Of a stretch of 38,571 nucleotides of DNA, positions 22,188-38,571 are shown piece by piece. The notes beneath the pieces were generated by a model. That model worked only from the letters and a program-made list of their open reading frames with translations. It had not been told where the DNA came from and ran no database searches. The stretch is from a virus (taxonomy: Duplodnaviria; Heunggongvirae; Uroviricota; Caudoviricetes): the IMG/VR virus record IMGVR_UViG_2541047961_000008; one strand, written 5' to 3'. The translations under genes and the position numbers were made by a program. Numbering within the stretch: position 1 is the first letter of the stretch; the number at the start of each line of letters is the position of its first letter.

Positions 22188-22295
22188 ATGCAGTCCCGCA
22201 GGGATCAGAAAGCCGCTGCCATTGTCTGGAAAATTATCCGGGCGTTGTGGCGCTGGTTGCGTAAACCTCAACAACCCCGTAAGGAGCAAAAATGA
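22188..22295 (+). CDS. Candidate 35-aa basic amphipathic peptide (MQSRRDQKAAAIVWKIIRALWRWLRKPQQPRKEQK)
   Basis: Unannotated small ORF between holin and endolysin; its stop overlaps the endolysin start. Confidence 0.25.
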   Translation: MQSRRDQKAAAIVWKIIRALWRWLRKPQQPRKEQK

Positions 22296-22633
22296 AACTC
22301 TCCGATAAGCAACAACAATTTACCGTCATGATCGGAAAACTCATCCAGTTTGCCCATCAGCGCGGTTATGGCCTGACGTTCGGTGAGGCGTACCGCACGC
22401 CAGAGCAGGCAAAACTCAACGCACAAAAGGGTTCCGGCATCACCAACAGTCTGCACTGCCAGCGACTGGCGGTGGATTTTAATCTGTTTATTAACGGTGA
22501 ATACCAGACCCGCACAGAGGCTTACCGCGAACTGGGCGAGTACTGGGAATCCCTCGGCGGCTCATGGGGCGGTCGTTTTAAAAACCGCCCGGATGGCAAT
22601 CATTTCAGCCTTGAGCACGACGGTGTGCGCTGA
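22292..22633 (+). CDS. Endolysin, M15-family zinc peptidase
   Basis: 113 aa; H...D...H metal-binding pattern (SLHCQRLAVDFNL...DGNHFSLEHD) typical of small M15 peptidase endolysins. Confidence 0.7.
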   Translation: MKLSDKQQQFTVMIGKLIQFAHQRGYGLTFGEAYRTPEQAKLNAQKGSGITNSLHCQRLAVDFNLFINGEYQTRTEAYRELGEYWESLGGSWGGRFKNRPDGNHFSLEHDGVR

Positions 22634-23178: not shown

Positions 23179-25275
23179 ATGTCACAACAGCGCCTTGAAT
23201 TACTTCTTGAACTGACAGACCGCCTGACAAGGCCGTTGCGCGCAGCCGGGCGACAGGTTCAGGGATTTGCTGCAACAAGTCGGGGAGCCTTTCGGGACAT
23301 TGCTACCGGAGGCGCTGCGCTCTGGGGAGTGGGTGCAGCCATCCAGGGTGCACTGATGCCAGCTATTGAAATGGACAGGGCGCTCGGTGAGGTGAAATCA
23401 CTGGGCGTCGCAGAGTCCGGATTGCGTAAACTCAGCCGTGCCGCCATTGATTTCACTATGGAATACGGCGGGGCTGCGCAGGATTTTGTGCGTGCTTCTT
23501 ACGACATCCAGTCAGCCATTGCCGGGTTAACTGACGATGAGCTGTCCCGCTTCACCACCGCATCAGCAACAGTGGCAGCAGCAACCAAATCCAGCAGCCA
23601 GACCATTACCGCCTACATGGGCACCATGTACGGCATCTTTAAAGACCAGGCTGATGCCATGGGAAAAAGCAAATGGGTGGAGCAGATCGCCGGACAAACC
23701 GCCACTGCCGTGCAAATGTTTAAAACAACCGGCGATAACATGTCAGCGGCGTTCACCACACTGGGGGCCAGCGCAAAAGCGGCCGGTATTGATGCGGCTG
23801 AACAGTTCGCCGTGCTGGGGCAACTGCAGGCCACCATGAGTGGCAGTGAAGCCGGGACAAAGTACAAGGCATTTCTTGCCGCAGTAGGTAGCGCCCAGAA
23901 AAAGCTGGGGCTTAATTTCGTGAATAAAGACGGCACGATGAAAAGTGTTGTCGAGATCATGAAACTTATCAGGGGTAAATTTGGTGATCTGTCAAAAGTG
24001 GCTGATTCCGATTTGCTGAAAAGCGCCTTTGGCTCCGATGAAGCTGTGGCCATGATTAAATTACTCAATGCGGACATTGGCGGACTTGAAAAGAATATCG
24101 CCACGCTGGGCAATATCAAAGGTATGGATAAGGCTGTCGAAATGGCGCAGGCCATGGCTGATCCATGGGAACAGGCCGCCGCAATTATTAACGGCATTCG
24201 CATTGAAATTGGCACACAACTGTTACCCGTTCTGTATCCATTCATTCAGAAAAGCAACGAAGGCGGTAAATCCTTTGTTGCCTGGTTGCGTCTGTATCCA
24301 AACATCACACGTGCAATCGGCTTATTAAGCGCGGCACTTATTGGTGTTGCGGCGGTTGGCGCAACGGTCAATATCGTAATGGGGGTGGCGAAATTTATCT
24401 GGGTGGGATTACGCATGGTCTGGATGGCCGCAATCGCACCACTGAAATTAATCATCTTTCTGTATCGTGCCCTGAAAGTGGTTATGCTGGCGTTCTGTGC
24501 TACTGCCCGCATGGTCAGGGCATTATATCTGGCGATGAGTATCGCCATGGGGGCGCACAATGTCAGGGCCAAAATTCAGATTGCACTGCTGAAACTGCAA
24601 CGCATCGGTATGTGGCTTTATTCTGCCGCACTGGGCGCTGCAGCTGTGGCCATGAAAATTTATACCGCTGTTACCGGTGGCGCAGCCGTTGCCACTCAGC
24701 TACTTTTCAGCCCGATAACGTTAATCATCCTGGCACTGGCTGCGCTGGGCGTGGGCATTTATTTTCTGATTACCCGCTGGGATGAGATCAAAGCGGCACT
24801 GATGGATACAGCCGCTTTTCAGTGGGTAACCAGTGTCATAAAAAATATAGCTGTATGGTTCGGCAATACCTGGAAAGGCATTAAAAGCGGCTGGGATGCC
24901 GTTATTAATTATTTTTCCGCCCGCTCACCGCTGGAAATATTTCAGGATTATGTCCGTCTGATTAATAAATTATTTTCAGGACTATGGCGCACAATTATCG
25001 GTATGTTCAGCTCAGCATTCAGATGGATTGCTGACAAGCTGAATATGCTCCCGGGTATAAATATTGATGTACCAGAAATTACAAATAACAGTGAGGGTTC
25101 TGTATTAACCGGTGGAAAAGTCATTAGCGCCGGGCCAGGTGGCATTGCGGCAAAAATGCAAAATAACAGCGACAGCCAGACCACAATTGATAACTCCCGT
25201 CGCGTGGTCAATGTCAATGTGCAGGATGCATCCCCGGCCCACCTTAATGAATGGATGGAGCTGCATGCATACTGA
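23179..25275 (+). CDS. Tail tape measure protein
   Basis: 698 aa, alpha-helical/Ala-rich with a C-terminal hydrophobic block; follows the chaperone pair. Confidence 0.8.
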   Translation: MSQQRLELLLELTDRLTRPLRAAGRQVQGFAATSRGAFRDIATGGAALWGVGAAIQGALMPAIEMDRALGEVKSLGVAESGLRKLSRAAIDFTMEYGGAAQDFVRASYDIQSAIAGLTDDELSRFTTASATVAAATKSSSQTITAYMGTMYGIFKDQADAMGKSKWVEQIAGQTATAVQMFKTTGDNMSAAFTTLGASAKAAGIDAAEQFAVLGQLQATMSGSEAGTKYKAFLAAVGSAQKKLGLNFVNKDGTMKSVVEIMKLIRGKFGDLSKVADSDLLKSAFGSDEAVAMIKLLNADIGGLEKNIATLGNIKGMDKAVEMAQAMADPWEQAAAIINGIRIEIGTQLLPVLYPFIQKSNEGGKSFVAWLRLYPNITRAIGLLSAALIGVAAVGATVNIVMGVAKFIWVGLRMVWMAAIAPLKLIIFLYRALKVVMLAFCATARMVRALYLAMSIAMGAHNVRAKIQIALLKLQRIGMWLYSAALGAAAVAMKIYTAVTGGAAVATQLLFSPITLIILALAALGVGIYFLITRWDEIKAALMDTAAFQWVTSVIKNIAVWFGNTWKGIKSGWDAVINYFSARSPLEIFQDYVRLINKLFSGLWRTIIGMFSSAFRWIADKLNMLPGINIDVPEITNNSEGSVLTGGKVISAGPGGIAAKMQNNSDSQTTIDNSRRVVNVNVQDASPAHLNEWMELHAY

Positions 25276-25615
25276 TAAACCGCTTTACATTGATTTGCTT
25301 ATCACCGGTCGCAATTTCACGCTGAACAGCGCCGCCGAACCGGTGCTGTGCAACAACAGGGAAAGCATTGCCCAGGACTGCCAGCACGCCATCATTGAAA
25401 GCGGACTGGCAACGCGCCTGCTGGCTGAAAAAAGCCCGACGCTTCGCGCCGACATTATGATGCAGATGACACTGCTGATTGAAGATGATGAGCGCATCAC
25501 ACCCGGCACGGTCAGTGTGACAGAGGAAACCCCGCTTTCCGGCCGCCTGCTGATTAGCGCCCACACCGAAGATTTTTTTGATCCCCTGACTTTTACGGTA
25601 TCTCTTGATGATTAA
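25265..25615 (+). CDS. Baseplate protein, gpW/gp25-like
   Basis: 116 aa from the ATG at 25265 (in frame with ORF 25112-25615); size and position before the J-like gene match P2 W. Confidence 0.5.
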   Translation: MHTDKPLYIDLLITGRNFTLNSAAEPVLCNNRESIAQDCQHAIIESGLATRLLAEKSPTLRADIMMQMTLLIEDDERITPGTVSVTEETPLSGRLLISAHTEDFFDPLTFTVSLDD

Positions 25616-26792
25616 CGGCAAACCAACCGCAGATTACGAGCGCATTCTGGCTGATAACGGCATGCCGGTAACCGAAGAACAGGCGCGCACTGAATTTGAG
25701 GCCATCGTTAAAGACGAAGGGCTTATCACTAACACATCCCGCATGTCGCCGTTCTGGCGGTTGATTACAGCCATTACCACAAAGCCCGTGATGTGGCTGA
25801 AAGATGCACTGGTTAATGTGGTAATGAAAAACCTGTTTCTGGTAAGTGCCAGCGGTGTATTTGTGGATGTTTTCGCATGGGCGGTAAACCTGCAGCGCAA
25901 GGCTGCCACGCACGCAGCTGGCGTGATTCGTTTCACAAAAGACGACATTGATCACGCGGTCACCGTACCGGCTGGTACGCAGATTCAGACAGAACGCATT
26001 AACGGCGTGATTTATACGCTGACCGTTGTCAGGGATACCATTATTCCGGCAGGAACACTCAGCATGAACATCGATGTTTCTGCTGAACAGGCCGGAGCCG
26101 GGTTTAACCTCGCGCCGGGGTATTACCGCATTCTTCCGGTGGCGATTAATGGTATCGCCGGCGTTGAGAACGACGAAAACTGGCTGACCACGCCGGGGGC
26201 CAACGAAGAAAGCGACGACGAACTGCGTGATCGCGTTCGCAATCAGTTTAATCTTGCCGGTGCTTATCACACCGACGCTGTTTACCGGGGATTAATTGCC
26301 GGTGTTGCCGGCATCAGTGCCGACCGCATCTATTTTTTGCATGACGCACCACGCGGCCCCGGCACAGCAAACGCTTACATTCTGCTGGATACCGGCATCG
26401 CATCCGGACCGTTCGTTGATGCAGTAAACGCATTTATTAACGATGAAGGTCATCACGGACACGGCGATGATTTGCGCTGTTTTTCCATGCCTGAAACGCG
26501 CCATGCCCTGACCGTGACACTCTGGCTGTATGCAACACTGAACCTCAACGCTGAAGAGATACGGGCTTTATTACGCAACGTAGAGAATCTGGTCCGCTGT
26601 GCGTTTCGCGAAAACAGCGATTATGACGTTCAGAAAACATGGCCGTACAGCCGTTTCAGCATGTCCCGACTGGGCGAAGAGATCCACCAGGTATTTCCGC
26701 AGGTGGAATCGGTCACGTTTTCCCTTCCGGATATTCTCAGCGACCTGGCTGTGCCTCGCCTGGAATCCCTTATCGTGGAGGTGGGGTCATGA
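25608..26792 (+). CDS. Baseplate wedge protein, gpJ-like
   Basis: 394 aa from the ATG at 25608 (track starts at a TTG at 25605); in the W-J-I order. Confidence 0.7.
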   Translation: MINGKPTADYERILADNGMPVTEEQARTEFEAIVKDEGLITNTSRMSPFWRLITAITTKPVMWLKDALVNVVMKNLFLVSASGVFVDVFAWAVNLQRKAATHAAGVIRFTKDDIDHAVTVPAGTQIQTERINGVIYTLTVVRDTIIPAGTLSMNIDVSAEQAGAGFNLAPGYYRILPVAINGIAGVENDENWLTTPGANEESDDELRDRVRNQFNLAGAYHTDAVYRGLIAGVAGISADRIYFLHDAPRGPGTANAYILLDTGIASGPFVDAVNAFINDEGHHGHGDDLRCFSMPETRHALTVTLWLYATLNLNAEEIRALLRNVENLVRCAFRENSDYDVQKTWPYSRFSMSRLGEEIHQVFPQVESVTFSLPDILSDLAVPRLESLIVEVGS

Positions 26793-27424
26793 ATATTCCG
26801 GAGATGCCCGAATTCCCTCTCCCAACCTGGATGAACAAGGGAGAGCCATTAACACTGGCACATTCTTCACATCGTTACTGGGAGAAGGTCTACAGCTGGC
26901 TGACATGGCCACTACAGCAAATTGATGTTGATACCTGCGCAGAGCCTCTGCTTAACCTGCTGGCCTATCAGCGCAACATCACCCGCTTCAGTGGGGAGCC
27001 AGTTTCATTATTTCGCTTAAGGGTAAAACACGCGTTTATCAACGCTCAGGACTCGGGCGAACGTGCCGGCTTCGAACGCATCTTTAAGCGCCTTGGCGTG
27101 GGAGAGGTAAAAACCCTGGAACGACAGCTGCAGCATGACTGGGACGTTATTTTACTGCGCATCAATGACACCCAGTTAAGCGAAAACAATGCCCTGATGA
27201 TGCAGCTCGTGCGCCAGTATGGCCGTACCTGCAGGCGCTATTTCTTTCAGGTGATTAATACAACCACCGCTTACCTGACAGCCGGCACATTCAGCGGTGA
27301 TTACCGGTATTACGTGGCAAAAGCGACGATACGACCAGGCACAATCAGATTAAACGCATCATTACAGGCAGGGCATTACGGATTATCCGTGGAGCATTAC
27401 ACATTACAGGCAGGTAACGTATGA
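26789..27424 (+). CDS. Baseplate/tail protein, gpI-like
   Basis: 211 aa from the ATG at 26789, coupled to J; immediately upstream of the tail fibre. Confidence 0.6.
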   Translation: MNIPEMPEFPLPTWMNKGEPLTLAHSSHRYWEKVYSWLTWPLQQIDVDTCAEPLLNLLAYQRNITRFSGEPVSLFRLRVKHAFINAQDSGERAGFERIFKRLGVGEVKTLERQLQHDWDVILLRINDTQLSENNALMMQLVRQYGRTCRRYFFQVINTTTAYLTAGTFSGDYRYYVAKATIRPGTIRLNASLQAGHYGLSVEHYTLQAGNV

Positions 27425-29286
27425 GCACAATTATTACCGAACAATATGAAAACTGGTGCGCAGATCAGATTATCAGCGATAAACCCGCACGCCCGGATAT
27501 GTTTGTTTTTGCGTATATTCCGGGACAGGATGAGTCTGCAGAAATTCCCCGTGATGAGGCTTTGCCCGATGAATCCATGATTCAGTATCGCGCGCCGGTC
27601 ACTCAGTATGGACTGCTGTCCCCGAATGCTGCCGCATTTTCCATTATTCTGGACACCACTATCGGTGACTTCGAATATAACTGGATTGGCCTCATGAACG
27701 AAGAAAGCGGCGTGCTCTGCATGATTGCACACACACCGCGCCAGCAAAAAATTAAAACAGCAAACGGCGTGCAGGGAAATAACCTTATTCGCACCTTTGC
27801 CATGGAGTTTGACGGTGCGGCAGCGGCAATGCATATCGATGTCAGTGCTGATGTCTGGCAGATTGATTTTACTGCCCGACTCGCGGGAATGGATGAATCA
27901 CGTCGCCTGTTGGCATTTGATCACTACGGTGAAGCTGCCTTTCTGGGGGACGGTTTTCAGGTCAGCTATCAGGACGGTACCGCCACTGTTGCCGCCGGCG
28001 TGGGTTATGTGGGAGGCCTGCGCGTCAGTCTGCGCGAACCTTACAGCCTGCCGGCTGCGGTCGGGGATACCCTCTGGATTGATGCAAGCTGGCAGGGATT
28101 TGTTACCGGCGAATGGAATACCGTTTTTACGTTCTGCGCCCGCAAGGAACATGCGTCCTATACAGACGGTAACGGCTTCCGACACTTTGTCGCGCCACTT
28201 GCAAAAATGACAGCAGGCGGCCCACAGGACCTGCGCCCGGAGACACCCGACGAGGAGCAAAGCAATGCACTGGCAGAGCACGAAAAATCCCGCAGACACC
28301 CGGACGCCACGCTGAACGAGAAAGGCTTTGCGCAGTACAGCAACGACACCGACAGCGACGCAGAAGACCGCGCCGCCACTTCAAAGGCGGTAAAAGCCGC
28401 AATGGATAAGGCAAAAAGCGCTGTTGAGCGAGACGGCGATACCATGACCGGGGAACTGAAAATCCGTGGTGTTAATGCGCTGCGAATTTTCAACGAAGCC
28501 TTTGGTCTGATTTTTCGTCGTTCGGAAGAGTGTCTGCACCTTATCCCTACCAGTGAAGGTCAGGGTGAAAATGGCGATATTGGTCCCCTGCGTCCGTTCA
28601 CCATAAATTTGCGGACGGGTGAAATATCCATGTCGCACAAAGTGTCTGTTGGCGGCGGTTCTCAGGTCAATGGTGCGCTGGGTATCGGTGTTCAGAATGC
28701 GCTGGGCGGTAACTCAATTGCTTTCGGGGATAACGATACAGGTATAAAACAAAACGGCGACGGCATTCTGGATGTTTATGCGAATGGACAGCATGTATTT
28801 CGTTTCCAGAATGGTGTGGCGATAGCGTTAAAAAATATTCAGGCCGGAAATGCTAAAAAATTCACGTTATCCAGCGCCAACAACTCAACGAAAAACGCAA
28901 CGTTTAATTTATGGGGCAATTCGTCCCGTCCTGTAGTTGCAGAGCTTGGTGATGATTCCGGCTGGCATTTTTACAGCCAGAGAAATACGGATAACAGTAT
29001 AACGTTCGCTGTAAACGGACAGATGGTCCCGTCAAATTATGGAAATTTCGATGCCCGTTACCAGACCAAATCAGGGGGCGTGCAGAATTTTCAGTACACC
29101 AGTGAGGTGTTTTACAACCCTGGTGGGAATGAGCGCAGCTGGACGTTTCGGGCACCTTCTGGTTGTGTTTTGTCAGGCATTAATGTTCAGGACACTGGCA
29201 GTAACTCTGCAGATAATATCGGTGGCGTGTATTACAAACAGGCTCAGATTTATATCAATGGTGCATGGCGATCCGTATCAGGTTAA
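27421..29286 (+). CDS. H: Tail fibre protein (P2 gpH-like)
   Basis: 621 aa; motif AEHEKSRRHPDATLNEKGF...AATSKAVKAAMD matches the P2 H collar region as I recall it; variable C-terminal tip. Confidence 0.85.
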   Translation: MSTIITEQYENWCADQIISDKPARPDMFVFAYIPGQDESAEIPRDEALPDESMIQYRAPVTQYGLLSPNAAAFSIILDTTIGDFEYNWIGLMNEESGVLCMIAHTPRQQKIKTANGVQGNNLIRTFAMEFDGAAAAMHIDVSADVWQIDFTARLAGMDESRRLLAFDHYGEAAFLGDGFQVSYQDGTATVAAGVGYVGGLRVSLREPYSLPAAVGDTLWIDASWQGFVTGEWNTVFTFCARKEHASYTDGNGFRHFVAPLAKMTAGGPQDLRPETPDEEQSNALAEHEKSRRHPDATLNEKGFAQYSNDTDSDAEDRAATSKAVKAAMDKAKSAVERDGDTMTGELKIRGVNALRIFNEAFGLIFRRSEECLHLIPTSEGQGENGDIGPLRPFTINLRTGEISMSHKVSVGGGSQVNGALGIGVQNALGGNSIAFGDNDTGIKQNGDGILDVYANGQHVFRFQNGVAIALKNIQAGNAKKFTLSSANNSTKNATFNLWGNSSRPVVAELGDDSGWHFYSQRNTDNSITFAVNGQMVPSNYGNFDARYQTKSGGVQNFQYTSEVFYNPGGNERSWTFRAPSGCVLSGINVQDTGSNSADNIGGVYYKQAQIYINGAWRSVSG

Positions 29287-29299
29287 TTAAGGAGAAATA

Positions 29300-29842
29300 A
29301 TGGAACTCGTAAACGTTACGCGTTACTACCCTGAAGATATGCCTTATGGTGAAGGCATTCAGTATTTCCGTAGTGAAGACGGGCAGGATTTTTATGAATC
29401 ACTGGATAAGTTCACGAAGAAATACAAGCTGTGCACACATCCTGAAACTGGCGTTATTTATTCCATGGCGGAAGATGTATCCCGCCTTTATCCCGTTGGT
29501 TTTACCATTGTGGAAGTGGATGAACTACCGGAAGGATTTTGTATTGAAGCCCGCTGGTATTATAAAGACGGTGAAGTGCTGCCGGTCCCTGTTGACTACC
29601 GGCAGCAGGCAGAGTCGGAGCGTGCACGTCTTACTGCGATTGCCGAACGGGAAATATCCGATAAGAAGACGGATTTACTTCTGGGAATCATCAGTGATGA
29701 AGAAAAAGAAAAGTTGACAGCCTGGCGCATTTACGCGAAATCGCTGCAGGCGATGGATTTCAGCCAGATTACCGATAAATCATCGTATGCCACAATTGTA
29801 TGGCCGGAATTACCGCAGGATATTAACGAGAATAAAAAATAA
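29300..29842 (+). CDS. Tail fibre assembly protein (gpG/Tfa-like)
   Basis: 180 aa directly downstream of the fibre gene; C-terminal segment LTAWRIYAKSLQAMDFS typical of the Tfa family. Confidence 0.75.
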   Translation: MELVNVTRYYPEDMPYGEGIQYFRSEDGQDFYESLDKFTKKYKLCTHPETGVIYSMAEDVSRLYPVGFTIVEVDELPEGFCIEARWYYKDGEVLPVPVDYRQQAESERARLTAIAEREISDKKTDLLLGIISDEEKEKLTAWRIYAKSLQAMDFSQITDKSSYATIVWPELPQDINENKK

Positions 29843-32370
29843 TGAGCGCGCTGTTGACGAAAGCATTTGAGAAATGGGTTGCTGAATGCGCCGCCAGTAA
29901 TTTACCGGCGCGACCTGACTCCATTGTTTTTGCACTGATGGAAAGGGAACCATCCAGAGATGATGAAGTTGTCCCTCCTGAAAAAATCACACACACGGTA
30001 AATAATCTGCACTATGGAAAACTGGATCCAAACAGCATTGTCTGTAGTGCCGTTGTTGCTGATAACGAGACATTCACTTACGACTGGATTTGCCTGGTCC
30101 ATCAACCCAGCAACACACTCTGCGGCGTAATTAAAACCCCGGTTCGCCACAAACTGACCGGCGAAACACTTATCCGCAATTTTGCTGTTATTTACAGCGG
30201 ACTGGCTCAGGCTGCACACATTACTGTTCCTCCTGAAAGCTGGCAAACAGACATCTCGCAGGAGCTGAAAACAATTCAGGGCTTTATCAGCGATCACATA
30301 GCAGTATCAACCCGTTATGCGGTCACCGAAGCTAATAAGCAGTTTTTGTCCATGCAGATAACCCACGGGCGTTATTCAGGGCTCTGGCGTTATCTTAATT
30401 CAACCGGGGGTATTAACTGGTATTTTTTGTTTCTTGCGATGTATGAAAGCGAAGGTAAAGCCTTTTCTCTCAGGGACAGACTCGTTATTTGTGAAAAAGC
30501 CTTTCGTCTCGGTATAACGGCGCCATTCATGACGAATTTCCGCTATGAAGCCGGACAGCGCGTGATGATTAACAACACGCTATTTTTTGTAAATATCGCC
30601 GGCATTACTGGAGAAACCACACCTGATATCAGTAGCATCTCACAAGGTGAGTTTATTTATACAGGTTCTGCTGTTCTTGAATGTCTCGGGAAGACCAGTA
30701 AAGAGATCCCGTCATCATGGTCATGGTTCTTTACCGATGTGGCCGCTGATTTATATTCACCGGTTGCCCCTGATTCTACAGACAGTTACCCATCCCTCTG
30801 GTTTGCCTGTATTGCTGAAATTGCAGACGCTTCGTGGTTACAGGCCCCTGCAGGGATCGGCAATCATTCCAGATGGGAAATCATCAGACTGGTAGCGGAA
30901 AATAATATTTTGCGTCAGCTAAATACTGACGCAAATCTGGTAAACGTCTTTCAGGAAAACGTTGCTCCCGGTAATACTCATTACGCGCAATGTTTTTGTC
31001 AGGATAATGCCGAAGTCTATGCCGGTTTACGGGCTCTGGTCTTTCTGGCCAGACTGGTTAATGACTCTGATGCCGCCTCGCAATATTCCAACGCAATGAA
31101 AACAATTAAAACAGGGTTGCTGGCATTATTTGTTCCGGGCCAGAACAGATTCAAGACGTATTACAATGAAGCTGATTACCCCGATACCCCGGGCGATGCT
31201 CGTTTTGTGCAAAAAGACCGATTCTCTGTGGCTCCGTGGCGCTTTGGTGTGCTGAATACGCCTGCTGAACAGGCACAATATGGACTATCCGTTCTGGATG
31301 CCATCCAGAAAGATTATCCCGATTTATTTACATCGGATTACGCAGGCATTGATACTTTCGCCATGAGCGACTTTTTTGCATTCGTGGCAAAAGTTACAGC
31401 CTCACAGACCGCCGCAACAACAGCCCTTCGTCGTCTGCAGATCCGAAAAACTGCCGCCGTAACAATTTCAGATATTGCATCAGCAATGTCAGTTTCAGCA
31501 TGGGGATCAGTCCCCTGCATGAGTACACGCGACTTTATACGAATTAATGGTCGCTCCGTTGTTGGAGGTGAAGATATTGTCTTTCCGGAAAGAGAAATCC
31601 GGCACATTACCCCCGTCAATAACGCCCAGGTGGTTGTGGATAACCTCAACAATGACACCGTATTGTTTATTGATAATGACTCTGCACTTTCATATCTCCA
31701 GTTCAAAATAGCGCCGGGGCTGGTTGATGGTTGCCGCCTGTCAATCACACCGAAAAGGGACGTGACGAGAACATCATTTCTTACGCAGGATGCGCAGGTT
31801 TCAGATGCTCCGGAAGCGTTATTTGCAGGGAAAAACGTTACATTTACGTACAATGCAACAACGCAAACATGGCACAGAAACTTTGTACCTGCAGTTTCTT
31901 CTGCTGCTACAAATTTATTGAAAAAACAATCAGAATCTCTGTTTGTTGATGGCGCTCACCCGATCATCCCCAAAATGCTTGTAAGCACCCTGAACTCCAG
32001 TCTGGATTCATTTAAAAGCCTGCCCGATGGTTCGCGTGTTTATACCCTGAAGCTGGATGTATCAAACCCCGTCGGGCAATCCTCAGTTGGCGGCATCGGA
32101 ATCGCTGTTTCAGCGCAGATTGAGCCGCGTTATCTCTATCAGAACCAGAACCGACAGTACATTCCAGCGCAGTATTTTGTCAGCTCTGTCTCTGCAAATG
32201 CGCGAACAATCACTATCGGAATACAGGTGGTGATGCCTGATAAACCTTACTATGCACTGGATATGTCAACACTGGAAGAAATTGCCGGCGCAGATAATGG
32301 GTTGCTCCCCTGTGTTGTGGTTATAAAAACACTTGCAGGGACAACATTGCGTCAGAACGGAATGGGATAA
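29842..32370 (+). CDS. Second tail fibre/tailspike-like protein (842 aa)
   Basis: First ~150 aa are clearly homologous to the N-terminus of the fibre at 27421 (MSxxxTxxxExWxAxxxxSxxPARPD.xVFA...); the large C-terminal part is unrelated to it. Confidence 0.6.
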   Translation: MSALLTKAFEKWVAECAASNLPARPDSIVFALMEREPSRDDEVVPPEKITHTVNNLHYGKLDPNSIVCSAVVADNETFTYDWICLVHQPSNTLCGVIKTPVRHKLTGETLIRNFAVIYSGLAQAAHITVPPESWQTDISQELKTIQGFISDHIAVSTRYAVTEANKQFLSMQITHGRYSGLWRYLNSTGGINWYFLFLAMYESEGKAFSLRDRLVICEKAFRLGITAPFMTNFRYEAGQRVMINNTLFFVNIAGITGETTPDISSISQGEFIYTGSAVLECLGKTSKEIPSSWSWFFTDVAADLYSPVAPDSTDSYPSLWFACIAEIADASWLQAPAGIGNHSRWEIIRLVAENNILRQLNTDANLVNVFQENVAPGNTHYAQCFCQDNAEVYAGLRALVFLARLVNDSDAASQYSNAMKTIKTGLLALFVPGQNRFKTYYNEADYPDTPGDARFVQKDRFSVAPWRFGVLNTPAEQAQYGLSVLDAIQKDYPDLFTSDYAGIDTFAMSDFFAFVAKVTASQTAATTALRRLQIRKTAAVTISDIASAMSVSAWGSVPCMSTRDFIRINGRSVVGGEDIVFPEREIRHITPVNNAQVVVDNLNNDTVLFIDNDSALSYLQFKIAPGLVDGCRLSITPKRDVTRTSFLTQDAQVSDAPEALFAGKNVTFTYNATTQTWHRNFVPAVSSAATNLLKKQSESLFVDGAHPIIPKMLVSTLNSSLDSFKSLPDGSRVYTLKLDVSNPVGQSSVGGIGIAVSAQIEPRYLYQNQNRQYIPAQYFVSSVSANARTITIGIQVVMPDKPYYALDMSTLEEIAGADNGLLPCVVVIKTLAGTTLRQNGMG

Positions 32371-32394: not shown

Positions 32395-33117
32395 ATGAAA
32401 TATTCTGTATGGGAGCACGCCATTCTGCGCCCGGCCCCCATGGCCATCACCTGTTCAATGGTTTGCCTCCATCCATGGTCAGAAAATACGGGAAACATTA
32501 CACCATCAGGGCGTTACCTCAGCCCGGATAATGCTGTATCCGCGCTTTTACCTTATCTGACAGAAAGCACTGAAAAAGACGTTGTGGCGCTGTTATTTTG
32601 CGCCCCGTCTGCAGGCGAGTTTTTATCACTGGCCAGACAGTTTTCAGGTGCACTTCCATTGCCGGAAGTGGGAAGAATGTCCCGCATGATCTCCAGCCAG
32701 CTTTCGCTGGCCGTGAGTAAAATGCAGCTCCCTGCAAAACCGGCAACCACACTTCCTGCAGAAGTCACGCTGTCCACACAAACCACCCGCAGCATGACGC
32801 GGGCAGCGACTATTGCGCAGGCTGCGATCCCGACCGCTGTATCTCCGGAAACATTATCCTCGTCTCTGAATCAGTTCAGAATCGCGAGAGATAAGGCACT
32901 ACAGGAAATCACCGACCAGCAGGCCGCAATTCAGAAAAACACCTGTCCGGTGTGGCGTTTTTTTTATACGGGCACACTAAATCAGGTTGCAGCACTGATA
33001 AAAAAAAATATTCCACATCCGGAATGGGTTTTTACAGCTGTGATGCTGTTTGTCGGTAATGATCTTTCATCACTAAGAGAATCACTACATGACCCAGATG
33101 ATCGTTCTTGCACTTGA
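32395..33117 (+). CDS. Hypothetical protein (possible accessory protein for the second fibre)
   Basis: ATG at 32395 with RBS aggaaa; the track ORF begins at a TTG at 32374. Confidence 0.4.
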   Translation: MKYSVWEHAILRPAPMAITCSMVCLHPWSENTGNITPSGRYLSPDNAVSALLPYLTESTEKDVVALLFCAPSAGEFLSLARQFSGALPLPEVGRMSRMISSQLSLAVSKMQLPAKPATTLPAEVTLSTQTTRSMTRAATIAQAAIPTAVSPETLSSSLNQFRIARDKALQEITDQQAAIQKNTCPVWRFFYTGTLNQVAALIKKNIPHPEWVFTAVMLFVGNDLSSLRESLHDPDDRSCT

Positions 33118-33664
33118 CGGGGAAGCCATTCTGTTACGCAACATCATCGTCAGCGCCACCATGCAACTACCGGATAAAGATATGTCCGGACAGTCAACCA
33201 GCACCACCAGTGCCCAGCAGGGAAGCAAGGCTAAAGAGCTGCGTGTATCAGGCGTCATTGATTTTAATGATGAAGCTGTTCTGACCCGTATATTTCAGCT
33301 TGCAGAAGCCACAGAAAGCAACGGGGCTAAAAAAACATACCGCATCGCCAACGCTACTGCTAAGGCGATTAATATGCGACAGGGTGTTTTTTCGGGCGGT
33401 ATTGATGCAACGGAACAACAGGGCAAGATGCACTGGCAGGTCACCTTTACTCTCAGGGAAAAATTAAGCGTGCCGGAAAAAGCATCGGCACGCAGTGGCT
33501 CACAGAAAACAATCGCAAAGCAGCAGACACAGAACGGCAGTGAGCAGGCACCGGATAAAGGAATGAATACCCAGGAGACTTTCTGGAAAAATATCAATGA
33601 TGGTATTGGCTCCGGGCTGGACTGGATTGGCATCGGGAGCGTGAAAGAGGAAGGGAAAACATGA
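33089..33664 (+). CDS. Hypothetical tail-associated protein (191 aa)
   Basis: ORF overlapping the upstream gene by 29 nt; sits between the fibre module and the hub-like gene. Confidence 0.4.
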   Translation: MTQMIVLALDGEAILLRNIIVSATMQLPDKDMSGQSTSTTSAQQGSKAKELRVSGVIDFNDEAVLTRIFQLAEATESNGAKKTYRIANATAKAINMRQGVFSGGIDATEQQGKMHWQVTFTLREKLSVPEKASARSGSQKTIAKQQTQNGSEQAPDKGMNTQETFWKNINDGIGSGLDWIGIGSVKEEGKT

Positions 33665-35358
33665 AATTAATCCAACGTTGCATGATTAATGGCGAGCTGG
33701 CGGAAATTGCCGATATCAGCCTTGTCCTTACCCTGAATGCTGCCGGTCGCGGCTTCATTTCTGTTAATAATCTGTCACCGGAAAAAAGCCTTGCCGGCGC
33801 AATGATACAAATTGATCTCGGCCGTAATGGTGAGGCATGGCGCTATTTCTCCGGCTACATTGAGCGCGATCAACCCGCCGAAAATGGCTCACGCCGCCTT
33901 TTTATCCGTGAAGCAGCTGCCGTGCTGGATTTTGATTTCCCCTGCTCCATGCAACATCCAACGTTACGGGATGTACTCGATAATCTGGGTAAACAAAGCG
34001 GCATCGTTTTCATCACGCCAGATGCGGATTACGTCAGCACACCGACACCTTACATCACCCACAGCGGCAGCGGAGCACAACTGCTCAGCCAGCTGGGGCG
34101 AGCATTCAGTATCAGCGATTACGTCTGGCATCCAATGCCGGACGGTTCCGTATTTGTGGGAAGCGCACCGGATTCACGGTTTGCCAGTATTACCATGCCG
34201 GATATTCCGCAACAGTACACACTCGGGCAAAGCGGCGGAAACAGCATCGACATCATGTTTATGGAAACTGTGCGGCCGGGCGTGAACCTTCCGGCCGGGC
34301 GCATTACCCGTGTAGCCCTCAACAACGAGAAAATGACCCTGACATGGGAACGCCTTACCGCCACGGGTAGCCCTGTTTCCAAATCACCATTACGCAGACA
34401 GATGGAAACACAGTTCCCGGAACTGGCCAGCGGCACTCTACATACCCGGCTGGCGCGCGTCATTGCCCCAACGGAATCCGTCACCCTGGGCGATATTGCC
34501 AACAGCTTCCGCCCACGCTACGCCGTCGATGTGCAACTGCTTGATGAGAACGGCAACGATAAAAGCGATACGCCTGTTTATCCGGCAGTACCACTCCCCG
34601 TCCCGATGGCTGGTAGCGAGGCGGGATGTTTTGCCTACCCGCCGGCAGGCACCATCGTGGAAATATCCAACATTGAAGGGCGACCGGATAAACCTGTCAT
34701 CAGGCAAATCTTACCCGCGGGCCATAACCTGCCTGATGTAAAGCCCGGCGAACAACTGCAGCAACAGCGCGCAGAAGTGTTTCAGCGCGTCACGACTGAC
34801 GGAAGCTGGCACAGAGAAACTGACCAGCAAATCAGGGAGCATTCAGCCAGGCGAACCATTAACAGCGATCAGGAAGAACGCACAACAACAACCAGAACAA
34901 CAACAGTCCAGGCAAACGACATAACCAGTGTTCTTGGCACCAGTAAGCTGATGACAGGCCAGACAGAGCACCTTACTACCGGCAATTATGCGATCGCAGC
35001 CGGTGAGCATATCCAGATGGTAGCGCAGGATTTGCTGACTCAACTCAAAGGGGCGATATCCACCATTGAGCATGACCTCACCGAAAACGTGGGAGGCCGC
35101 AGAACATGCAGGGCGGACGGCGGTCTGGAGTTTACCGCCCCGACAGTATTTATTGGTCGCGGTGGCTCGCGGGAAAAGTCCGGGCTTAACCTGCTGACGT
35201 TGCTGATCGATATTCTGGATCTGATTCAATTGCTGGCCACACATACAGCAAACCACACCCATAGCAACACAGGCACGCCAATGAACAGCGGCGAACTTGC
35301 CGCAGATGCCCTGCAGGCGACGAGTCTGCGCGAAAAATACGGCGACATTATCGCCTGA
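33661..35358 (+). CDS. Putative baseplate hub/central spike protein (gpD/gpV-like, possibly a fused hub-spike)
   Basis: 565 aa, last structural gene; C-terminal His-rich motif ATHTANHTHSNTGTP resembles metal-binding spike tips; assignment by size, position and motif. Confidence 0.45.
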   Translation: MKLIQRCMINGELAEIADISLVLTLNAAGRGFISVNNLSPEKSLAGAMIQIDLGRNGEAWRYFSGYIERDQPAENGSRRLFIREAAAVLDFDFPCSMQHPTLRDVLDNLGKQSGIVFITPDADYVSTPTPYITHSGSGAQLLSQLGRAFSISDYVWHPMPDGSVFVGSAPDSRFASITMPDIPQQYTLGQSGGNSIDIMFMETVRPGVNLPAGRITRVALNNEKMTLTWERLTATGSPVSKSPLRRQMETQFPELASGTLHTRLARVIAPTESVTLGDIANSFRPRYAVDVQLLDENGNDKSDTPVYPAVPLPVPMAGSEAGCFAYPPAGTIVEISNIEGRPDKPVIRQILPAGHNLPDVKPGEQLQQQRAEVFQRVTTDGSWHRETDQQIREHSARRTINSDQEERTTTTRTTTVQANDITSVLGTSKLMTGQTEHLTTGNYAIAAGEHIQMVAQDLLTQLKGAISTIEHDLTENVGGRRTCRADGGLEFTAPTVFIGRGGSREKSGLNLLTLLIDILDLIQLLATHTANHTHSNTGTPMNSGELAADALQATSLREKYGDIIA

Positions 35359-36515: not shown

Positions 36516-37256
36516 TTAATCTTCGATTTTCTTTAAAGGAAAAATATCTGGAGTAAATACATCCTTAACAGGAATATTTAGCTGCTTACGAATAAACTGT
36601 TTCAATTTCTTTTCTTCCTTTAAATCCAAAATCCCATCATTACCAGCAAACTTTTTCTTATACTCATTCCACAAGGATATAGATTGAAGTTGCGATTTCG
36701 TTAATATTACGTCACTAGACAATATAGTCCATTTTTTATTATCACATACAACACCAGTTCCACAACCATCCGGAGAATAATCAACCATTGCCAACCGATA
36801 ACTACCTTCCGAATTTTCCGTAGGTAGAAGCAACACAGATACAAAGTCAGCTCTCTTCTCTTTCTGCCACTCAATAGCCGCGGCCATTGCTGTCGAAGCT
36901 CTTGATTCTAAATCTTGAGACTCAGGAGACACTATAAAAACCTTAAATCTCTTTCGCCCCGCATAACTTATGTCATCATAACGCACAAAAGAATACGGTT
37001 TCGCCTTGTCTACTCCAGATAAAGCAAGTTCATCGCTAATATGCTCCTTCGATGGAATATTATTTACCTGTGAATCGGATTCGTTTCCGGATAATTGCCA
37101 AATAACCCAAAACACAACGAAGAACATTACAACCAACAATAAACACCCTCTCCTTTCTTTTTTTTGCGTTGCCCAAAAAGAAGTTCCACACGTCGGACAC
37201 ACTGATTCCTTCGTAGAATTTTTAGACTGACATTTTGTACAAACCCAATGAAGCAT
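36516..37256 (-). CDS. Hypothetical zinc-ribbon membrane protein in an AT-rich island (246 aa)
   Basis: N-terminal CxxC...CxxC (CTKCQSKNSTKESVCPTCG), one TM helix (LLLVVMFFVVFWVIWQL), ~190-aa C-terminal domain; visibly AT-rich compared with flanking phage genes; RBS ggag. Confidence 0.55.
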   Translation of the reverse strand: MLHWVCTKCQSKNSTKESVCPTCGTSFWATQKKERRGCLLLVVMFFVVFWVIWQLSGNESDSQVNNIPSKEHISDELALSGVDKAKPYSFVRYDDISYAGRKRFKVFIVSPESQDLESRASTAMAAAIEWQKEKRADFVSVLLLPTENSEGSYRLAMVDYSPDGCGTGVVCDNKKWTILSSDVILTKSQLQSISLWNEYKKKFAGNDGILDLKEEKKLKQFIRKQLNIPVKDVFTPDIFPLKKIED

Positions 37257-37575: not shown

Positions 37576-38571
37576 ATGATACAACCTATTTCCGGCCCTC
37601 CTCCTGGGCAACCACCAGGTCAGGGAGATAACCTGCCGTCTGGCGCGGGCAATCAGCCTTTATCCAGTCAGCAACGTACTTCGCTGGAAAGCTTAATGAC
37701 GAAAGTGACCTCACTGACGCAACAACAAAGAGCAGAACTGTGGGCGGGTATCAGGCACGATATTGGTCTGTCGGGAGATTCACCGCTGCTTTCGCGTCAC
37801 TTCCCTGCCGCTGAGCATAATCTGGCGCAACGTCTGTTGGCCGCGCAAAAAAGCCATTCTGCCCGCCAGCTTTTAGCGCAATTAGGGGAGTATTTACGTC
37901 TGGGGAATAATCGTCAGGCGGTCACGGATTATATCCGTCATAACTTTGGTCAGACGCCGCTGAATCAGCTCTCACCGGAGCAATTAAAAACCATTCTCAC
38001 CCTGTTGCAGGAAGGGAAGATGGTTATTCCGCAACCACAGCAGCGCGAGGCGACCGACCGTCCTTTATTACCGGCGGAGCACAATGCGCTCAAACAGCTG
38101 GTGACCAAACTTGCGGCAGCAACGGGGGAACCCAGCAAACAGATCTGGCAATCGATGCTGGAACTTTCCGGGGTGAAAGATGGCGAGTTAATTCCAGCGA
38201 AACTGTTTAACCATCTGGTGACCTGGCTACAGGCGCGTCAGACGCTAAGCCAGCAAAATACGCCGACACTGGAATCACTACAGATGGCGCTAAAACAACC
38301 TTTAGATGCCAGTGAACTGGCGGCGTTATCGGCATATATCCAGCAAAAATATGGCCTTTCTGCGCAATCATCGCTTTCTTCTGCCCAGGCCGAGGATATT
38401 CTTAACCAGCTTTATCAACGGCGGGTTAAAGGGATTGAGCCGCGTGATATGCAACCGCTGCTTAATCCTTTTCCACCGATGATGGACACGTTGCAAAATA
38501 TGGCAACGCGTCCCGCGCTGTGGATACTGTTAGTCGCGATTATCCTGATGCTGGTCTGGCTGGTTCGTTAA
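37576..38571 (+). CDS. Chromosomal Flk-like C-tail-anchored protein
   Basis: 331 aa; Pro/Gly-rich N-terminus (PPPGQPPGQGDNLP), Q-rich body, single C-terminal TM anchor (ALWILLVAIILMLVWLVR), as I recall for enterobacterial Flk; RBS aagga. Confidence 0.5.
   Translation: MIQPISGPPPGQPPGQGDNLPSGAGNQPLSSQQRTSLESLMTKVTSLTQQQRAELWAGIRHDIGLSGDSPLLSRHFPAAEHNLAQRLLAAQKSHSARQLLAQLGEYLRLGNNRQAVTDYIRHNFGQTPLNQLSPEQLKTILTLLQEGKMVIPQPQQREATDRPLLPAEHNALKQLVTKLAAATGEPSKQIWQSMLELSGVKDGELIPAKLFNHLVTWLQARQTLSQQNTPTLESLQMALKQPLDASELAALSAYIQQKYGLSAQSSLSSAQAEDILNQLYQRRVKGIEPRDMQPLLNPFPPMMDTLQNMATRPALWILLVAIILMLVWLVR

Follow-up and report, generated by a model that had tools for sequence, protein, structure and literature searches.

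Which genes encode the hub and the spike of a contractile tail whose tape measure gene is followed directly by W-J-I-type baseplate genes? This question is raised by a 38,571-nucleotide (nt) stretch of viral DNA (IMG/VR record IMGVR_UViG_2541047961_000008, here called the window), which contains an HP1-like prophage of the HP1 subgroup of Peduoviridae. An earlier model-made reading of the letters (the first-pass annotation) had pointed to three open reading frames (ORFs) at 32395-35358, behind the fibre genes, with products of 240, 191 and 565 amino acids (aa). It had proposed that the last of them, the only gene of hub or spike size, encodes a fused, VgrG-like hub-spike protein with a His-rich tip. 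The ORF list and Pfam confirmed this arrangement, and the tail module yielded no further ORF resembling a hub or a spike. We consider it very probable that the 565-aa product combines the hub and the spike at the centre of the baseplate in one chain and that it is the orthologue of HP1 orf35 in an E. coli prophage. Its two neighbours, one orf33-like and one orf34-like, would be accessory to the central baseplate.

The N-terminal region of the 565-aa protein has a hub fold. A monomer model from AlphaFold2 (AF2), built on 37 homologues, had predicted local distance difference test scores (pLDDT) of 80-95 for residues 1-240 and was poor beyond. The structural match of the modelled part to the fold of gp27, Mu gp44 and P2 gpD was very strong, and the hubs of phages E217, phiTE and P1 were named among the comparisons as well. 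In Foldseek, the best scores belonged to proteins that carry hub and spike in one chain and align over 570-690 columns, namely those of AlgoCIS (1.1e-17) and PVC (3.8e-16), Afp8 (7.5e-14) and several VgrGs of type VI secretion systems (T6SS; 1e-13 to 4e-17), while hub-only proteins aligned over ~300-340 columns and the Mu spike gp45 was matched at 1.3e-3. The best PDB matches to the family were at most 17% identical. Since the family has no solved structure, a structure of an HP1-type baseplate would contribute a compact type of hub and perhaps a variant of the apex.

The features of a central spike follow the hub domain. The Phage_base_V profile (PF04717) for the N-terminal oligonucleotide/oligosaccharide-binding (OB) fold of spikes matched 37 of 37 family members (best E 4.1e-5), and the 565-aa sequence itself with an E of 0.023, below the gathering cutoff. 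The OB motif GTIVEISNIEGRPDKPVI aligned to VgrG1 residues 414-447 with the family profile (weakly with the single sequence) and weakly, as a single sequence, to Pvc8. A weak, sub-threshold match to NCBIfam vgr_GE was located at residues 312-363, and phrog_4011, the stand-alone version of the spike, matched residues 243-563 (E 3.9e-72). Further towards the C-terminus, a triple-stranded beta-helix is predicted from profile matches within the family: Gp5_trimer_C was found in 23/37 members (best 4e-6) and Gp5_C in 11/37, and the family profile aligned to residues 477-576 of the T4 gp5 beta-helix (E 0.006). Indels between homologues fall in this stretch. Length differences in multiples of 8 residues were also considered, but the distribution was only partly consistent with them and we make no claim. 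Taken with the full-length Foldseek matches and the invariant histidine pair described below, the recurrence of OB and beta-helix profiles in the family bears out the fused, VgrG-like architecture that had been proposed.

The chain ends in a tip module with a hydrophobic helix (511-530), an HxH pair (H532/H534; x, any residue), a G/P/T-rich loop and a second helix (543-559), the helices being taken from the AF2 model at pLDDT 75-80. The His-rich string that had first drawn attention, THTANHTHSNTGTP, comprises residues 527-540 (nt 35239-35280). H532 (nt 35254-35256) and H534 (nt 35260-35262) are invariant in the 37-sequence alignment, and H528 is H, Q or R among the homologues. The suggestion of a metal-coordinating tip is supported at the level of the motif, through the HxH pair, which P2 gpV has as well. 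HxH was found in 124/126 family members scanned (the remaining two are truncated database entries), always 31-39 residues from the C-terminus, and a conserved hydrophobic helix (N-[ILV]-x-x-L-L...) begins 22 residues before it. The same helix-HxH module occurs in HP1, K139, phiO18P, ACA1 gp49 and phi3 gp34.

According to a study of the P2 spike, no feature other than HxH is universally conserved among central spikes, and HxH can serve to recognise an Apex domain; in P2 gpV, H197/H199 contribute to a six-histidine cage around Fe, and spikes without HxH carry a PAAR protein (bioRxiv 10.1101/2023.02.25.529910). The 565-aa protein has this histidine-cage motif: the P2 gpV C-terminus reads ...VLHTHKHPGDSGGTTGSPL and the window protein ...NHTHSNTGTPMNSG..., with an HTH (His-Thr-His) motif common to both tips. 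The two differ in that the module is ~58 residues long against 21 for the P2 Apex, with 31 residues after HxH against 12, and in that helices are predicted on both sides of HxH, so that the fold of this tip may differ from that of the gpV/gp138 Apex. We found no prior description of such a longer tip formed by a hydrophobic helix, HxH and a second helix. Tentatively, and with more doubt than confidence, the tip of the HP1 subgroup could be a structurally distinct apex, in which the histidine cage caps a six-helix bundle, where P2 gpV and phi92 gp138 have a small beta-type Apex of 21 residues. In that case, the hydrophobic helices might, once piercing has taken place, be set free or enter the membrane.

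It seems improbable that the module belongs to a hub-spike protein without being its piercing apex, and serves instead to clamp the trimer or its register, to aid folding within the chain or to dock another tip protein. Fibres and tailspikes have HxH cages too, which are thought to hold the chains in register (bioRxiv 10.1101/2023.02.25.529910), and both the size of the module with its two predicted helices, compared with the 21-residue P2 Apex, and the unusually hydrophobic first helix, strictly spaced from HxH, would suit such a role. On the other hand, the module lies at the extreme C-terminus right after the predicted beta-helix, which is the site of Apex domains, and its HTH, with the G/P/T-rich loop that comes next, is similar to HTHKHPGDSGGTTGSP of P2 gpV. 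Furthermore, Pfam scans of the tail-module ORFs detected no separate spike-tip or PAAR gene, although the scan of the window's small ORFs was not exhaustive.

With the 565-aa chain read as a fused hub and spike, its relation to P2 and to the VgrG-type proteins can be specified. Hub and spike are separate proteins in P2 (gpD and gpV), with Mu gp44 and gp45 and pyocin R2 PA0628 and PA0616 as equivalents. The 565-aa protein shares the hub fold with P2 and the spike plan of OB fold, beta-helix (here predicted) and C-terminal HTH histidine motif with gpV, but it is one polypeptide where P2 has two, its hub part has ~240 residues against 387 for gpD, and similarity to gpD/gpV at the sequence level was undetected with simple profiles. 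The first-pass annotation had contrasted this locus with P2, where hub and spike genes were said to precede the wedge genes. This is correct for the spike, since V precedes W-J-I-H-G in the P2 record, but D, which encodes the hub, stands last among the tail genes there, after T and U. The HP1 type differs from P2 in having the W-J-I-fibre block between T (tape measure) and the hub-proximal genes, and in that the hub gene continues at its 3' end into the spike gene.

The T6SS VgrG and the Pvc8, Afp8 and AlgoCIS Alg8 proteins of extracellular contractile injection systems combine hub, OB fold and beta-helix in one chain, as does the 565-aa protein, whose beta-helix is predicted. It is nevertheless not a member of the VgrG and Pvc8 families, because it scores below the sequence cutoffs of TIGR01646 and TIGR03361 (19.8 bits against 121.8 and 15.9 against 186.35) and lies in a phage context, its neighbours being phage head, tail and fibre genes and not a T6SS or eCIS (extracellular contractile injection system) locus. 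Its hub module is shorter than theirs, and it has an HxH tip of its own, unlike VgrG, Pvc8 and Afp8, which have blunt ends and a PAAR cap. The 565-aa protein would act like a fused spike of the VgrG or Pvc8 type, and it belongs to the HP1 orf35 family.

The fusion itself has been noted before. HP1 orf35 was stated to be a gpD-gpV fusion in the 2023 genome paper on ACA1/ACA2 (PMC10612066, Table S1 footnote d), in which HHpred related its N-terminal part to P2 gpD (10% identity) and its C-terminal part to the gpV structure 3QR8. Considering this published fusion and the gene order of HP1, the fused hub-spike protein in the window is the already known standard of the HP1 subgroup, and the finding leaves current understanding unchanged. 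Split versions are homologous to the 565-aa protein over both halves, and we confirmed this state in two phages: Pseudoalteromonas phage ACA1, with gp48 (234 aa) and gp49 (317 aa) (PMC10612066), and Pseudomonas phage phi3, with gp34 and a hub ORF that carries no annotation in the phi3 record. In both (ACA1, L083 3318-4948; phi3, L085 3501-5155), the hub ORF and the spike ORF use different reading frames, with an overlap of a few codons that lies exactly at the fusion point of the 565-aa protein. The gene boundary corresponds to window residues ~236-243, where the confident hub model ends. Because one ORF is present here and two in ACA1 and phi3, fusion or fission occurred within the HP1 subgroup. 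A true phage lineage thus has a VgrG-like hub-spike fusion, and a single subgroup contains both the fused and the split form, which makes a small but clean case of genes fusing or splitting among contractile injection systems. A 323-aa protein from the representative search (P0308) matched the orf33 family with residues 15-81 and the C-terminal part of the orf35 family with residues 81-321; it is most likely a deletion joining two genes in a decaying prophage.

The three genes are orthologues of HP1 orf33, orf34 and orf35, an assignment that follows from the identical order of the tail genes in HP1, K139 and phiO18P. The HP1 record runs from orf27 (tape measure) through orf28-orf32 to orf33 (258 aa), orf34 (187 aa) and orf35 (533 aa), and the window repeats this orf27-orf35 order. 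The orf35 homologue is the last gene before the terminator or the cos end in K139 and phiO18P, and the 565-aa gene is likewise last in its tail module, 3' of the fibres and after the orf33 and orf34 homologues. As the HP1 genome record already shows this layout, it is not peculiar to the window. The closest known systems are HP1 orf35 (UniProt P51739), K139 orf39, phiO18P gp46 and the ESSI-2-type 'baseplate protein' (phrog_2258). They have the same layout of hub, OB fold, predicted beta-helix and helix-HxH-helix and are 42-47% identical to the 565-aa protein over residues 1-452 up to 1-565. In contrast to these orthologues, the 565-aa protein belongs to a distinct Enterobacterales clade, with at most 47% identity to any deposited phage, and it shows a small length difference from the HP1 orf35 type within the beta-helix region.

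Residues 1-565 of the protein matched phrog_2258 ('baseplate protein') over positions 1-544 of 544 (E 4.8e-233), and 1116 homologues were collected at E<=1e-5. By tblastn against deposited phages, 75 records were matched, all below 60% identity and all of the HP1 subgroup, from Haemophilus, Pasteurella, Vibrio, Aeromonas, Pseudomonas, Pseudoalteromonas, Cronobacter, Salmonella, Yersinia and Escherichia; HP1 orf35 was 42% identical (1e-107) and the ESSI2-type phages 46-47% over the full length. No deposited phage was matched when megablast was run with the three genes; the relatives are detectable only at the protein level. Given the 1116 homologues of the 565-aa product and PHROG family matches for all three products (E 3e-40 to 5e-233), the ORFs are real genes and not chance ones. 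A plausible ribosome-binding site stands at the start of each, the 240-aa and 191-aa ORFs overlap by 29 nt, and an ATGA stop/start overlap joins the 191-aa ORF to the 565-aa ORF. An E. coli protein identical to the 240-aa product is on record (P0121). All three genes are annotated as hypothetical proteins in RefSeq E. coli genomes, although some NCBI/UniRef entries name the 565-aa family "baseplate assembly protein V" or "Gp5/Vgr OB-fold domain-containing". The present reading gives a function, that of an HP1-type central baseplate module, to three genes that are hypothetical in dozens of these genomes.

The orf33-orf34-orf35 trio (93% identical) also persists in a prophage remnant of three E. 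coli genomes. In E. coli 33-6 (L087, NZ_CP050031.1 3386235-3397170), the remnant contains glsA, IS1, a truncated tail-collar fibre gene and the trio, which is followed by hok/gef, a serine acetyltransferase gene and copA, with no other adjacent tail genes.

The 191-aa and 240-aa proteins had both been left unassigned, and only the first can now be placed. Residues 2-174 of the 191-aa protein matched positions 2-176 of 180 in PF25759 (HP1_ORF34, "Bacteriophage HP1 ORF34 baseplate complex protein") with E 1.8e-53 and 181.3 bits against a cutoff of 27, and all 44 of its homologues matched the same family; it also matched phrog_1398 (1.3e-64). A conserved domain of ~125 residues is followed by a charged, variable tail, and the position of the gene is kept in HP1, K139, phiO18P, ACA1 and phi3. 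A link between orf34 and P2 gpU has been proposed from HHpred and was labelled 'uncertain' by its authors (PMC10612066). This link was not reproduced when the 191-aa family was compared with P2 gpU by hhalign (probability 0.1%), and PF06995 (gpU) had no match at E<=10 in any of the 44 members. Relatives of gpU were sought for a diverse profile, and all 80 loci were at least 98% identical. The 191-aa protein may still be the counterpart of gpU.

The 240-aa protein belongs to phrog_1677, for which no function is annotated, and no fold could be assigned to it. A diverse profile of its family, drawn from an exhaustive representative search, also found no relatives in Pfam or the PDB, its AF2 model was weak and gave no informative structural match, and phmmer/hmmsearch of the 240-aa and 191-aa families against PDB sequences returned chance-level matches only. 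Lenient Pfam scans of all members of the two families added nothing. The 139 representatives of the 240-aa family form two length classes (~235 and ~295 aa) and include no informative fusion partner, a 527-aa member having no annotated extra domain. Functional evidence for this protein consists of its conserved position and the presence of its ACA1 homologue in virions; it is probably a low-copy virion protein or a baseplate-associated one. Close relatives carry the motifs CSxVCLHPW (residues 20-28), C69, CPVW (184-187) and NIPHPEW (205-210), and these Cys/His motifs are clade-specific, as HP1, K139 and ACA1 do not keep them.

From the above results, a plausible model of the central baseplate can be outlined. 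Three copies of the 565-aa chain would assemble into hub and needle. From the N-terminal gp27/gp44/gpD-like domains, a pseudo-sixfold hub would arise. It would cap the tail tube, mediate between the sixfold symmetry of the tube and the threefold symmetry of the spike, and serve as the nucleus for the wedges, which consist of the DUF2590 protein, J and I. The OB folds would build the needle together with an intertwined beta-helix and the C-terminal module; at the needle tip, the six histidines of three HxH pairs could enclose a metal ion in a cage, the ion being Fe in P2 gpV. On contraction, the sheath would push the needle, with the tube behind it, through the outer membrane, and the 191-aa and 240-aa proteins might serve as accessory parts of the central baseplate.

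Several observations weigh against a fused hub and spike. No Pfam or NCBIfam hub or spike model scored above its curated cutoff on the 565-aa sequence, residues 1-240 had no Pfam match, and neither membership of Pfam Phage_GPD nor sequence similarity to P2 gpD was found. When the family was compared by hhalign with single P2 gpD and gpV sequences, nothing was returned (probability 0.2% for gpD; the gpD, gpV and gpU comparisons were all below 1%). As the family profiles were shallow (Neff ~2.3) and the templates single sequences, these nulls are not evidence against homology. The AF2 model had a pLDDT below 50 over most of residues 350-505, so that this monomer model did not capture the geometry of beta-helix and tip; for an intertwined trimer predicted as a monomer, a poor model past residue 240 is to be expected. 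Finally, mass spectrometry of ACA1 virions detected gp48, gp49 and gp46 (the orf33 homologue) but not gp47, the orf34 homologue (PMC10612066).

That the three genes are non-structural, being cargo or moron genes or an assembly-only module at the prophage end with the true hub and spike encoded elsewhere, is very hard to sustain: the hypothetical labels in RefSeq, the survival of the trio alone beside IS1 in the degraded remnant of E. coli 33-6 and the undetected gp47 would agree with it, but the hub fold match is very strong, no other candidate was found in the tail module, gpD-like, gpV-like and orf33-like proteins are present in ACA1 virions (PMC10612066), and genera from Haemophilus to Pseudomonas keep the same gene order.

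The hub-spike gene and its two companions close a tail module of the P2/HP1 type (Table 1). On the 5' side of the tape measure gene lie a P2/HP1-type small terminase, gpL, gpR and gpS, a DUF2586 protein at the sheath position and an HP1_Orf24 protein at the tube position.

Table 1. Positions of the genes and protein domains discussed in the text.
Feature	Position	Strand	Remarks
Peptidase_M15_4 protein	22292-22633	+	113 aa; between tube and tape measure genes
Tape measure (PhageMin_Tail)	23179-25275		Pfam
DUF2590	25274-25615		Pfam
Baseplate_J	25605-26792		Pfam
Tail_P2_I	26789-27424		Pfam
Tail-collar fibre	27421-29286		Pfam
Fibre assembly protein	29300-29842		Pfam
Second tail-collar fibre protein	29842-32370	+	842 aa; N-terminus PF12571, 1.8e-9
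240-aa ORF	32395-33117	+	ATG start
191-aa ORF	33089-33664	+	
565-aa ORF	33661-35358	+	ends at stop codon
Hub domain, residues 1 to ~240	33661..34380	+	gp27/Mu gp44/P2 gpD fold
Linker and OB fold, residues ~243-350	34387..34710	+	gp5N/gpV/VgrG type
Predicted triple-stranded beta-helix, residues ~365-505	34753..35175	+	profile matches in family
Tip module, residues ~508-565	35182..35358	+	helix, HxH, loop, helix, stop codon
Zinc-ribbon and DUF4875 protein	36516-37256	-	246 aa; right of prophage
Gln/Pro-rich protein	37576-38571	+	331 aa; right of prophage

Some other genes of the window deserve mention. The 842-aa protein matched phrog_33169 end to end, and its residues 389-478 gave a weak match to a mannosylglycerate-hydrolase-like glycoside hydrolase domain (E 0.0011, below cutoff); it may be a glycan-degrading tailspike additional to the ordinary fibre. 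The Peptidase_M15_4 protein is of the D-Ala-D-Ala carboxypeptidase type. Since holin and lysozyme occupy the corresponding position in HP1, it is probably an endolysin of a different enzyme class. A tRNA gene that would mark the attachment site or the right junction of the prophage was looked for and none was found. To the right of the prophage, a zinc-ribbon and DUF4875 protein is encoded on the opposite strand, followed by a Gln/Pro-rich protein with a hydrophobic C-terminal anchor, which presumably resembles enterobacterial Flk.

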